Source of the DNA: Promethearchaeota archaeon
GTDB lineage: Archaea; Asgardarchaeota; Lokiarchaeia; Sigyniarchaeales; SOKP01
DNA length: 64,000 bases
Reading direction: 5' to 3'
Assembly (NCBI GenBank): GCA_019057865.1
Contig: JAHLWP010000013.1
Coordinates: 1 to 64,000 of the forward strand
The notes below the pieces were generated by a model, which was not told the DNA's origin, made no database searches, and saw only the letters and a program-made list of their open reading frames with translations. The position numbers and the translations under genes are program-made. Numbering within the stretch: position 1 is the first letter of the stretch; the number at the start of each line of letters is the position of its first letter. Below are positions 6,429-57,552 of this stretch, in pieces.

Positions 6429-7598
6429 TTAAAATTTTATTTTCGATTTTATAAAATGAATTTGTGCATTTACAATATCTTTTATATCATAATTAGATAT
6501 AACAAATTCTCTGGCGTTCTTAATAATCTTATTTCGCATAGCTACATCATTCTTAAAAAGGAGTAATTTTTCTAGAAGGTTATTTTGATTAAACGGATCA
6601 AATAAAAAACCTGTTTTTTCATGTTTAATAATATCACGATTTCCTTTAACATTCGAAGCAATTATAAACGTATTGGTTAATGCGGCTTCTAATATTATCA
6701 TGGGGACTCCCTCTCCAAATGAGGGATGAATCAAGACATCTAGTTTACTATATATCTCCGATTTATTTGCCTTAAAACCCATAAGAAGAATTTTATTGCT
6801 AAGATTATATTTTTTAACATAATCTGAGATAAAATATATTTCTGGACCCATTCCAAAAATTAATAATTTATCGTTTGGAAAATGAGTTAAATACAATTTA
6901 AAGGTTTTTATTAAAAATCTAATATTTTTTGTTTTTATCAATCTCCCAACATACCCAAAATTAATCCCATTATGAGAATCTTTCTTAATATTATCAAAAG
7001 TGTCGGATTGAATTCCATTTGGGATTAAAACAATGTTATCTCTCTTTAGATTTAATTCAATTAAGTCATTATAAATATCTTGATTAATAGCTTGTACATA
7101 AACTCTTTCTCGCTTGAGAATATGTTTTTTAAAAAATTTCATCCAACCATAATGTAAAATTTTAAAAATTCTTGATTTAGATTTTGAATAAAAAAATTCC
7201 CTATCGTAGGTCTCAAAATTAGTTGGAGTAATAATTAAAATAGGTATTTTAAGAATATAATTTAGTATTGATGGGATAAATACTTCATAATAAGAGAATC
7301 GGAATAAAAATAATACATCTATCTTCCTAGCTTTATTTAAGGATATTATCTTGGAAAATCCCTTTAAATTGAAATAAATGGTATTTATTTGTCTAATTTT
7401 AAATTTATTAAATTGATATATTTTTAAGTTATTAGAAATTGGTTTATACTGTGAATATTTTGTTATAAGAGAGATATTAAGATTCTGCTTTTTTTCAAAT
7501 TCAGATAATAATTGAACGATTTGACTTGCTATCCCTCCTTCTTCAAAAGCAAAATTCCGATTTTTATGAGTATTTGAAATATAAATACAAAAATGAAT
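6429..7598 (-). CDS. GT4 glycosyltransferase; extended to a probable ATT start at 7598 (track gives 7142)
   Basis: IPNG, YVGRL..KN, PSFGEGVPMIILEAA. The frame is open from 7142 to 7598 and encodes the GT4 N-terminal EEGGIASQ; GGTGA lies 5 nt upstream of the ATT. Confidence 0.85.
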   Translation of the reverse strand: MHFCIYISNTHKNRNFAFEEGGIASQIVQLLSEFEKKQNLNISLITKYSQYKPISNNLKIYQFNKFKIRQINTIYFNLKGFSKIISLNKARKIDVLFLFRFSYYEVFIPSILNYILKIPILIITPTNFETYDREFFYSKSKSRIFKILHYGWMKFFKKHILKRERVYVQAINQDIYNDLIELNLKRDNIVLIPNGIQSDTFDNIKKDSHNGINFGYVGRLIKTKNIRFLIKTFKLYLTHFPNDKLLIFGMGPEIYFISDYVKKYNLSNKILLMGFKANKSEIYSKLDVLIHPSFGEGVPMIILEAALTNTFIIASNVKGNRDIIKHEKTGFLFDPFNQNNLLEKLLLFKNDVAMRNKIIKNAREFVISNYDIKDIVNAQIHFIKSKIKF

Positions 7599-7613
7599 TT
7601 AAATCACCAATTA

Positions 7614-8468
7614 CTATATTTTGTTTTTGTTTTTTTTAATCGTATATAAAGTTAATATGTAATCCTGAAGGTTAATTAAATGAGTATATATTTTTTTACC
7701 AAAAATCAAACCAAATAAATTTCTTGATATTGATATCCAAAATCTTAAATAATTCCAAAGTATTAATTTTAATCCAAATCTTTTAAAATCATTTTTATAT
7801 TTTCTGAAAAAATAAATTGTGCTATCTATTATATTTTTAAAATTATAGCTTAATTGATTAACGGATTCATATTTAATCGATAATTTTTCTGGTACATAAT
7901 CAAAGTTACATAATTTTGCTATCTGAATAAATAGATCATATTCATCATGATATTTTAAATTTAAATCAAAATAAGGTGTAAATTCTTTTTCAATCAAAGG
8001 CGACTCAGTTCCTTTTACCGAAAAAGAAGTAAGTAATGACTTATATACATTTCCTCTTGCACGATTTTTCCAAACTCTATTTATATTTCCTCCATTGTAT
8101 TCAACATCACAAACTACTGCTCCTAGATTTTCAATATTAGATTTCTTAAACTTATTTATTTGAAGTTCAGTTTTATTTGGTAGAATTTGATCATCATCAT
8201 CCAGAAAATTTATATATTTTCCTTTAGAATAGAAAATTCCCTTATTTCTACTAAATTGAGGTCCTCTGTTAATTCTATTTTTAAAGTACCTTAACCTTGA
8301 ATCTTTAATTCCCTTAACAAAATTTTCAGTATTGTCTTTAGAATTATCATCAATTATAATTAATTCCAAATCTGTAATTGTTTGATTAAGTACTGAATTT
8401 ATTGCTCTTTTAAGATAGTTAACTCTATTAAAGGTAGGAATTATAAATGAAACTAAAGGCTCATTCAT
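7614..8468 (-). CDS. GT2 glycosyltransferase
   Basis: VSFIIPTFNR, IIDDNSKD, FLDDDD. Confidence 0.9.
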   Translation of the reverse strand: MNEPLVSFIIPTFNRVNYLKRAINSVLNQTITDLELIIIDDNSKDNTENFVKGIKDSRLRYFKNRINRGPQFSRNKGIFYSKGKYINFLDDDDQILPNKTELQINKFKKSNIENLGAVVCDVEYNGGNINRVWKNRARGNVYKSLLTSFSVKGTESPLIEKEFTPYFDLNLKYHDEYDLFIQIAKLCNFDYVPEKLSIKYESVNQLSYNFKNIIDSTIYFFRKYKNDFKRFGLKLILWNYLRFWISISRNLFGLIFGKKIYTHLINLQDYILTLYTIKKNKNKI

Positions 8469-8990
8469 GTGATTTTCAATATTATATTAATCTGGTTTAT
8501 AATAGATTAGAATTTGAGAAATTATTCTACTTATATAAATATTCTGATAAAAATATATATATGTTTTTTTAATTCTACTAAATATTGTGTAAACGCTTTA
8601 ACGAATTATTTTAAGAAATTGCTTTTTTTCATTCTCGTTCCTTTACTGAATATAAATCGAGTGAGGAACTATAAAATGTCATATGTTATTCTTAATTTCT
8701 CAAATCCATATTTTTGTTTTTGTTTTTGAATTTTCGACTTAAGTTCTAGCATTTTTTTGGATTCTTCCTTTTCCCAAAAAGATTCTAAGCGTCCAAAAAT
8801 GAATTTAATCAATGCATTGTAGGTCTAAACCTCAAAAAAAAATTTAGGTGTAATTGGATTTCAGCGAATTATATTTATGCTAAATATTTCTCTGAAATGT
8901 TTATTATTAAATTATATGGATGATTTTAACTAAAATTTAAAATAGATTAAAAACTAAAAAACTCAAGAATTTCATTTTAAAATTAAAAAT

Positions 8991-55866: not shown

Positions 55867-56496
55867 TTAAATATTTCGGTTTTTCTTATAAATTTTTACA
55901 AGATTTATTAGATCATCGATGAAAAAGGTATCTATTCCTGCTCTTTCACCAGTTTGAATATCGTTCTGTAAATCTCCAAAAAATATTATTTCTTCTTTCT
56001 TAATCTTGTAGTGATCTTGAATTTTAAAAAGACCCTCGGGATTTGGTTTCCATTTTCTTACATCCTCTCTTCCAATGATATAATCTATTTGTTCCATTAA
56101 GCTCACTAATTTTAAAGATTCTAAAATTGTAGTTCTTGTATTAAGAGACAGGATTGCTAATTTTGTTCCCTTTTCTACACCAAATTTTTCTTTATTCTTA
56201 ATAAAGAAAAGAGTTTCTTCAATTGGTTGGGTCTCTTTAATGTTTTCAAGTTCATAACGTTTGATAATATTGAAAAACTTTTTCAGATTCATTTCATCTT
56301 TCTTATCAACTATATCATTAAGGTAAGCAGAAATTCTATTAAATTCACCTCTTTCTCCATAAATCTCCACATAATTTTCTTCTATCATATTTTTCAATGA
56401 ATTCCAATCTGCTGATAATCTTACAATTGTTCCATCCAAATCGAATATGATAACCTTTTTTCCTTTAAATGTGAATTTTTTCATGTTGTTATACAT
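55867..56496 (-). CDS. HAD-family hydrolase
   Basis: FDLDGT, KP.PEG, FFGD...D. Confidence 0.88.
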   Translation of the reverse strand: MYNNMKKFTFKGKKVIIFDLDGTIVRLSADWNSLKNMIEENYVEIYGERGEFNRISAYLNDIVDKKDEMNLKKFFNIIKRYELENIKETQPIEETLFFIKNKEKFGVEKGTKLAILSLNTRTTILESLKLVSLMEQIDYIIGREDVRKWKPNPEGLFKIQDHYKIKKEEIIFFGDLQNDIQTGERAGIDTFFIDDLINLVKIYKKNRNI

Positions 56497-56754
56497 TATG
56501 ATAATTCAATAAAACTAGTAAGAAAATAAATTTATTAGAAAAATTAAGTTTTTGGGAAATTATTTGGAATTAACTTAACTTTCTATTAAGTAAATATTAA
56601 CACAGAAAATATAGAAAGCTTTAATTCTTCTTTATTAATAAAAATTTAAGAAAAAAAGAGTGGATGCTTTAATCCATAGCATATTTTTTTTTTCCAAGCT
56701 AAAGCTTTTTTACTTAAAAAATAAGAATATTGGATAAAAAATAATTAATTTCCT

Positions 56755-57264
56755 TTAATCCATAGCGTATGTCTTAGTCCATGCGGCTGCTTTAGCCCCA
56801 AACTTTTTCTGAGCACGAAAATATTGCTCGCCTGCTTCATGATTTAATGGATCACCCGGATTAAAGAAGGGAGGTTCAACATGCATCATACCCTTAAGGG
56901 CTTCGATAATATTTGTTAAAGTTTTACTTGGTGTCCACCCACTTGCCCCAGTCGAAGCATCCACTTTACCTACAAGATCTGGATTAATTAAGTCAAGGCA
57001 TATATTTAATTTCCCTGGAGGAATAGAACTATCTATATTAGGATGCCACATGAGTGTCACAGCGTAAGCATAAGGGGGTTGGAACGGGTAATTTTCAGGG
57101 AATTTTATTTCAAAAACAAATTTTCCATCAGCGTAAGGAGTTCCTTTTTTACCAATAATAGTTAACCGTAAATGGTCAATTGAGCGCCCCCAAGGTTCTA
57201 AAATAATGGAAGGTTCGTTCTTATAAGCTTCAATTGCTTCAGTATAGTCAGTTTCTTCTCTGAT
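56755..57264 (-). CDS. Ubiquitin-conjugating enzyme E2 (probable ATC start 57264; track gives only 56755..57060)
   Basis: Upstream frame is open and reads IIGKKGTPYADGKFVFEIKFPENYPFQPP; then WHPNI...ICLDLI...WTP and DPLN.EA. Confidence 0.88.
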   Translation of the reverse strand: MREETDYTEAIEAYKNEPSIILEPWGRSIDHLRLTIIGKKGTPYADGKFVFEIKFPENYPFQPPYAYAVTLMWHPNIDSSIPPGKLNICLDLINPDLVGKVDASTGASGWTPSKTLTNIIEALKGMMHVEPPFFNPGDPLNHEAGEQYFRAQKKFGAKAAAWTKTYAMD

Positions 57265-57552
57265 TACTCATCACCTATCTCTAAAAATTACAATTAAATT
57301 TTATTGTTAAATGTAAAGAATTAATAATTCTATATTAGTTTGATTTTATTTATTTATTTATTTATAGATTAATTTATTAAAAAGCTTTTAAAAAACAAAA
57401 ATTTGATGTTTTCTATATTATCATTTTCTTTATGCAATATTTAAGCAGAATTAAAATAATTGATATAAAACTAATAGACTGCATTTTATAATTTTAAACA
57501 AAACTCTAAAAGAAGTATTTTACTTTAAGATTCTATAATTTCGTGTAAAAAT

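Follow-up and report, generated by a model that had tools for sequence, protein, structure and literature searches.

ATT, ATC and ATA are very likely used as translation start codons in a Loki-type lineage of Promethearchaeota

Where do the genes of this locus begin? The window, which is the whole stretch of 64,000 nucleotides analysed here (contig C18, bases 1-64000), comes from a 4.26 Mb metagenome-assembled genome (MAG; 87 contigs, 29% GC) whose close relatives, as found with initiation factor aIF1, are MAGs titled Promethearchaeota or Promethearchaeia (Loki-type Asgard archaea, e.g., Loki_b31, Loki_b32 and AMARA). It carries four genes, coding for an E2 ubiquitin-conjugating enzyme, a longin-domain GTPase, a GT4-family glycosyltransferase and a RACo-type activase, whose frames stay open upstream of the first ATG, GTG or TTG (the canonical starts). 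A first-pass annotation had placed the start of each at an ATT or ATC codon, and all four sites are as it described. Judging from comparative sequence analysis, ATT, ATC and ATA (collectively ATH) are very likely genuine translation starts in this lineage, because no canonical start is available to such genes, ATH codons stand in the column where orthologues have ATG, GTG or TTG, the Shine-Dalgarno (SD) element and the ATH codon are conserved together, the enrichment is specific for both codon and spacing and is absent from another AT-rich family, and the initiator tRNA is normal.

The 3’ end of the 16S rRNA, GGATCACCTCCT (also given as …GGAUCACCUCCU), matches the SD motif, and the expected SD element is therefore AGGAGGTGATCC. 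At unambiguous ATG starts, G is enriched at positions -14 to -7 and GGTGA peaks at a 6-nt spacer; the peak lies at 6–7 nt for ATG and ATH alike, while GGAG is usually found 9–11 nt from the start. The four genes and the elements ahead of them are as follows.

56755–57264, minus strand: E2 coding sequence (169 aa), with its proposed start at ATC 57264–57262, in the start column of the orthologues, and the UQ_con domain at residues 18–162.
57265–57275, minus strand: E2 ribosome-binding site, GGTGA (57275–57271) plus a 6-nt spacer with the in-frame stop TGA (57270–57268), complementary to the 16S end.
41003–43147, plus strand: longin-domain Arf/Roc-type GTPase coding sequence (714 aa), with its proposed start at ATT 41003, in the start column of the orthologues, and an Arf/Roc/Ras match from residue 127.
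40992–41002, plus strand: GTPase ribosome-binding site, GGTGA (40992–40996, with the in-frame TGA) plus the 6-nt spacer ATTGCT.
6429–7598, minus strand: GT4-family glycosyltransferase coding sequence (389 aa), with its proposed start at ATT 7598–7596, Glyco_transf_4 at residues 21–197 and Glycos_transf_1 at residues 210–364.
7599–7608, minus strand: GT4 ribosome-binding site, GGTGA (7608–7604) plus the 5-nt spacer TTTAA.
45665–47605, minus strand: RACo-type (Fer2 plus ASKHA) activase coding sequence, with a candidate start at ATT 47605; RACo_C_ter, Raco_middle, RACo_linker and Fer2 all match.
47606–47617, minus strand: weak SD-like element of the RACo gene, AGGGAGAAAAGC, which arose by the same T-to-G change that removed the ATG.

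The E2 frame is open for 69 codons before its first canonical start, a GTG. Since a protein truncated to this point would begin just before the HPN motif, it would lose most of the ubiquitin-conjugating (UBC) fold. Across 20 species of the genus the start column, which lies behind GGTGA, is occupied by ATC in 18 and ATT in two, and never by ATG; in 11 orthologues from other families in the order, the same column, directly preceding the motif R-E-E-x-D-Y, holds ATG (six), ATT (three) or, in the rest, TTG or GTG. Over the 20 species, GGTG is 90–100% conserved within variable flanks. The suggestion that an out-of-frame ATG at 57271 might be the true E2 start, joined to the gene through a frameshift error, was rejected: this ATG is missing in 19 of the 19 other species of the genus.

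A similar picture is seen for the longin-GTPase, whose frame is open for 37 codons before its first canonical start. Its start column holds ATT (17), ATA (3) or ATG (3) within the genus, always 6 nt after a frame-closing TGGTGA, and ATG (6) or GTG (1) in other families, where it stands ahead of L-R-Q-V. In the 23 orthologues TGGTGA is 90–100% conserved, as opposed to 40–70% for its flanks, and column by column the SD and the first two bases (A and T) of the start codon reach 90–100% in both the E2 and the GTPase genes, against 40–80% for the flanks. A second ATT, at 40997, directly follows the TGA and leaves a spacer of 0; it was considered as the GTPase start and judged unlikely, given that its column varies in the genus. 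Between its GTPase domain and a coiled-coil-like tail at the C-terminus, the protein also carries a long proline-rich tandem repeat (42150–42550, plus strand), built of units such as PKKPEVPKPPITP.

The GT4 gene has 152 open codons ahead of its first canonical start (ATG 7142), and without this extension the whole N-terminal Rossmann domain would be lost. The extension aligns with solved enzymes of the family: residues 20–375 of the query match residues 14–346 of WlaC in the PDB, while residue 206 of BshA, another solved GT4 enzyme, corresponds to query residue 217. The ATT is the first codon after an in-frame TAA (7601–7599); it lies 15 nt past the TAG stop (7616–7614) of the upstream GT2 gene, and the SD begins 5 nt past the same TAG. 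The GT2 gene (7614–8468, minus strand) and the GT4 gene share a frame, with the separator TAG TAA TTG GTG ATT TAA (7599–7616) between them, such that the GT4 SD is placed between two stops of the shared frame.

The RACo gene is the weak case among the four. Its frame is open for 22 codons after a TAA (47623–47621), and the Fer2 domain starts at residue 19, corresponding to profile position 14. In 21 species of the genus an ATG stands four codons upstream of the ATT column, whereas the ancestral ATG column is AGG (47617–47615) in this genome and, otherwise, only in its nearest relative, G012. The T-to-G change converted ATGGAG into AGGGAG, 6 nt before ATT 47605; GGAGA, within AGGGAGA, would pair with the anti-SD across a central mismatch or, in the GGAG register, leave too short an effective spacing. 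The ATT column is thus not that of the canonical start in the orthologues, and ATT 47605 is a plausible replacement start.

These comparisons bear out most of what the first-pass annotation had claimed for the four genes. The extensions are coding, as shown by UQ_con from residue 18, Fer2 from residue 19, the GT4 N-terminal domain at residues 21–197 and the WlaC alignment. The described combination of an SD with a nearby in-frame stop is present in the GT4, GTPase and E2 genes (stop 0–2 codons before the ATH codon, GGTGA 5–6 nt ahead of it) but not in the RACo gene, where the SD is weak and out of register. The suggested check of whether orthologues have ATG in the same column came out positive for E2 and the GTPase (ATG, GTG or TTG in other families) and negative for RACo, whose ATG column lies four codons upstream.

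To place these starts in the context of the whole genome, we collected 3622 non-overlapping stop-to-stop open reading frames (ORFs) of at least 100 codons and scored each codon, beginning at the upstream stop and going as far as the first canonical start, by the longest run matching GGAGGTGA at a spacer of 5–7 nt. Behind runs of at least 5 nt we counted ATG 104, TTG 27 and GTG 14 times, and ATT 38, ATA 29 and ATC 10 times, whereas equally common control codons were rare in this position (AAT 10, TTA 9, TTT 3). The first-pass annotation had proposed such a count as a check; when ATH was compared with the other non-canonical codons, strong SD (a run of at least 5 nt) versus none, the odds ratio was 6.7 (p = 1.5e-23). 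At least five codons ahead of the first canonical start, ATH accounts for 57 of the 102 SD-preceded codons, almost all of them 0–7 codons past an in-frame stop. The signal is also specific in its spacing: GGTGA precedes 21 of 3534 ATH codons and 4 of 11316 control codons at a spacer of 6 (a 17-fold enrichment), and 15 of 3534 and 7 of 11316, respectively, at a spacer of 7 (7-fold), while the same genome-wide count gave no ATH excess at other GGTGA spacers. After background subtraction about 56 ATH starts remain behind a strong SD, compared with 145–226 canonical ones. On these sequence counts, ATH starts very probably affect about 55–70 genes, roughly 2% of the genome, and would make up roughly one in five to one in four of the strongly SD-led starts. 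As a separate observation, in 28 genes AAA occupies the SD-spaced position with the first canonical start directly after it, which produces a second GGTGA spacer peak at 9 nt, a possible alternative spacing.

Twenty further candidates elsewhere in the genome were scanned against Pfam, and 12 of them had an informative domain near the N-terminus. Eleven of these 12 need the extension. The GFO_IDH_MocA profile, for example, has its position 1 on the ATT codon itself, AFOR_N has its position 2 at residue 6 and BKACE its position 1 at residue 10; the HepT, HIT, alpha/beta-hydrolase, ABC-2 transporter and 4Fe-4S candidates likewise require it.

The same SD-plus-codon statistic was then computed on samples of 400–800 kb from five other genomes, counting ATH codons at least two codons ahead of the first canonical start versus canonical starts.

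G000, this genome (whole genome, 29% GC): ATH/canonical 66/145.
G006, same genus (400 kb): 8/20.
G032, sister family f2 (400 kb): 2/16.
G038, sister family f2 (400 kb): 3/15.
G033, family f4 (400 kb, 53% GC): 2/15, with 15 other codons and hence no excess.
G065, family f7 (800 kb, 30.5% GC): 1/37, with 13 other codons.

The ATH habit is strongest in the family of this genome and weaker in sister family f2 (5/31 combined). The ratio differs from that of G065 both for this genome (p = 5e-5) and for its congener G006 (p = 0.003), although SD use in G065 is as frequent as here; since G065 is equally AT-rich and has no ATH signal, AT-richness alone does not produce it. The idea that start-codon choice is relaxed in this lineage is therefore supported by the codon- and spacing-specific signal, the ATH columns conserved over 20–79 species and a ratio that falls with distance. 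The proposed set of ATT and ATC was correct as far as it went, both being used, but it left out ATA, which is as frequent a start as ATT.

We next turned to the initiation machinery. A motif search identified a single initiator-type tRNA, with A1:U72, three G:C pairs (GGG:CCC) beside a CUCAUAA loop and the anticodon CAU. Its gene (C77, about 728–870, plus strand) apparently contains two introns, one at the canonical 37/38 position and one in the T-arm, and was missed by ARAGORN, which reported 13 tRNAs without and 28 with the intron search but no tRNA-Met; Rfam gave 30 hits. No initiator-type tRNA with an anticodon other than CAU was found, within a tRNA detection that was incomplete. Among the elongator tRNAs, C41:172466–172621 (minus strand) encodes a tRNA-Ile that has the anticodon UAU and contains a long intron. 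Archaea mostly read AUA by means of a modified CAU tRNA, and a UAU tRNA-Ile is unusual. These features are compatible with a simple route to ATH initiation, in which the 16S 3’ end would pair with a strong GGTGA-type SD, the pairing would set the P site 6–7 nt downstream, and the ordinary initiator Met-tRNA (CAU) would pair with AUU, AUC or AUA by two Watson-Crick pairs, leaving the third position mismatched. Both initiation at the ATH codon and a Met N-terminus would then be expected for these proteins.

The gene for aIF1, the factor that rejects near-cognate starts, is itself affected. In this genome (C77:24475–24804, minus strand) it has no canonical start ahead of the zinc knuckle, and a TGA, to which most species of the genus add a TAA, closes its frame three codons ahead of a conserved ATT. 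The start column was compared in 79 species-level genomes of the group and reads ATT in 76 and ATC in three, with in-frame stops 1–3 codons upstream and a nearly invariant AAAGGTTGTGA 9 nt upstream. ATT or ATC is found in all genera of this genome’s family (f1), with ATA or a nearby GTG in one genus. In other families the start varies: TTG, GTG or ATA in f2, CTG or GTG in f9, ATA behind AGGAGG in f11 and f17, and ATG in about ten more, among them f7, in whose genome the ATH signal is absent. A survey of loci L284–L323 across Asgard families, in which the aIF1 gene often lacks an ATG start, additionally indicated a probable CTG in f6.

The position of aIF1 on an ATT or ATC start suggests that negative feedback may adjust its level to a stringency at which ATH starts can function. 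We tentatively propose, as a possibility that falls short of an even chance, that the near-cognate start of aIF1 (ATT or ATC in the family of this genome, and ATA or CTG in several further Asgard families) could constitute a homeostatic loop setting start permissiveness, and that it might govern a lineage-specific “ATH regulon” of 50–100 genes that includes eukaryotic signature proteins. A less probable source of the relaxation, along the lines of the altered aIF1 fidelity suggested in the first-pass annotation, is a set of amino-acid changes in aIF1 (or in aIF1A or aIF2) that lower its fidelity, as opposed to an expression set-point. ATH use is lineage-specific, and the family’s aIF1 is only about 40–50% identical to that of other Asgard families, in keeping with such changes; however, the ribosome-binding loop 1 has retained its basic and aromatic residues (R-K-W-G-R here, R-R-F-G-K in M. 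jannaschii), and no known fidelity residue could be shown to be altered. The loop 1 comparison revealed no sign of lost fidelity residues or of a crippled factor. In P. abyssi aIF1 the residues shown to matter are R31, Y32 and K34 (PMC6237735), and only for S. solfataricus and P. abyssi is it known that aIF1 discriminates against non-canonical starts (PMC6237735).

Alternatively, ATH codons could be read by a special decoder, either another initiator-like tRNA, whose anticodon would be GAU or UAU, or ribosomes that reinitiate after an upstream ORF without a start-codon requirement. The incomplete tRNA detection (30 Rfam hits and many introns), the presence of a tRNA-Ile(UAU) gene and the 15-nt distance of the GT4 start from the preceding stop leave some room for this, but CAU is the anticodon of the only tRNA found to have initiator hallmarks, the acceptor stems of the tRNA-Ile genes are of the elongator kind (G1), and the E2, aIF1 and GTPase genes are preceded by intergenic regions with promoter-like boxes and not by upstream ORFs. 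We consider such a decoder very unlikely.

It is harder still to credit that the genes start at their first downstream ATG, GTG or TTG, with the open stretches serving as untranslated leaders. This reading matches the proteins in public databases, and for RACo a start at TTG 47554 would cost only about 17–22 residues. Yet E2 would be left without most of its UBC fold and GT4 without its N-terminal Rossmann domain, the extensions are conserved as protein, orthologues from other families have ATG exactly at the ATH column, and an open frame of 69 or 152 codons is very unlikely to arise by chance at 29% GC. The database proteins fit what had been predicted of standard gene callers, namely that they would truncate such genes, as the public collection holds exactly a 679-aa GTPase and a 237-aa GT4 from this contig. 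The least credible proposal is that of sequencing or assembly errors, or of pseudogenes in which the start codon was lost: the sequence comes from a MAG of 87 contigs, RACo has truly lost its ATG and no orthologue was found for GT4, but the same ATH codon and SD occur with intact frames in 20–79 independently assembled genomes (frames are intact in nearly all orthologues and the start context is conserved), aIF1 is essential, and the out-of-frame ATG close to E2 occurs in this genome alone.

Several observations weigh against genuine ATH initiation or limit its reach. The samples from other genomes are small, and related species do not count as independent data points. For GT4, a search of 40 relatives at E <= 1e-40, a cut-off that was probably too strict, yielded no close orthologue, and the extension has a coding score of 0.09, compared with 0.18 for the remainder of the gene. 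The RACo gene combines a recent loss of its ATG with a weak, out-of-register SD and a 17-codon extension of neutral coding score, making it weaker than the other three. Among the 12 informative candidates, one (C30:12850) was a false positive that proved to be an internal fragment of a PALP enzyme. Finally, 66 ORFs of at least 150 codons have at least 30 coding-like codons before any canonical start and no SD-plus-ATH combination within 15 codons of the upstream stop; they could represent SD-less non-AUG starts, frameshifts or split genes. The fragment at C30:12071–12850 (minus strand) matches only the C-terminal half of a pyridoxal phosphate-dependent (PALP) enzyme and has 59 more open codons upstream, possibly reflecting a broken or split gene.

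Starts of this type have precedents elsewhere. The E. coli genes infC (which encodes IF3) and pcnB use AUU starts, and ATT, ATC and ATA are listed as alternative initiators in NCBI table 11. As in those genes, the starts described here are SD-led AUH codons that would be read by a normal initiator tRNA, and the gene for the discriminating factor itself sits on such a codon, which in infC is coupled to negative feedback. In contrast, the machinery here is of the archaeal, eukaryotic-like type (aIF1, aIF1A and aIF2), aIF1 and IF3 are not homologous, ATH starts occur in dozens of genes and not in one or two, ATA and ATC are used in addition to ATT, and feedback is so far a supposition.

A closer parallel at the level of the factor is eukaryotic eIF1, which is autoregulated through an AUG in poor context (Ivanov et al. 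2010, as cited in PMC6237735). aIF1 is its orthologue, in both cases the proofreading factor lies on a weak start, and the set of near-cognate codons in use would depend on the level of the factor; but eukaryotes scan and favour CUG, GUG and ACG, whereas here the SD would position the ribosome and the favoured codons have their mismatch at the third position (AUU, AUA and AUC).

Within archaea, reviews give AUG, GUG and UUG alone as starts (PMC7531240), and our full-text literature searches found no systematic description of ATH starts, apart from a single-gene case. This is the “rare ATT start codon” proposed in a 2026 paper for AtubA of a Lokiarchaeia (Kariarchaeaceae) MAG (PMC13394414), where the deposited protein lacked its first beta-strand and an ATT lay at a plausible distance from a ribosome-binding site. 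The reasoning is the same as ours; unlike that single-gene rarity, the starts reported here occur throughout the genome, are conserved between species and were quantified with a control lineage for comparison. Ribosome profiling of Haloferax volcanii, another archaeon with signs of initiation beyond AUG, GUG and UUG, found near-cognate codons at about 30% of putative alternative sites, which were set aside as possible false positives (PMC7261190), whereas the ATH codons considered here are the only possible starts of conserved main ORFs.

If ATH starts are used as we propose, gene finders restricted to ATG, GTG and TTG would clip or misplace the front of about 2% of the proteins in these genomes, with losses ranging from part of the longin domain in the GTPase to a whole domain in GT4 and most of the fold in E2. 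Such truncations would distort structure predictions, phylogenies and expression constructs for the eukaryotic signature proteins of Asgard archaea. A lineage with aIF1 itself on AUU would also offer a natural system for studying the stringency of the eIF1-type proofreading core. Should the aIF1 loop be real, it would be the archaeal counterpart of both the IF3/infC and the eIF1 autoregulation, and would suggest that tunable start stringency predates eukaryotes.

Two other genes of the window complete the description. The HDAC gene (62576–63874) was considered as a further candidate and set aside: it has an ordinary ATG start, the 36 open codons upstream look non-coding (score 0.08) and the domain begins after the ATG. 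Divergent from the RACo gene, the segment 47813–54178 (plus strand) encodes a 2121-aa protein with many TPR and MIT-like repeats.

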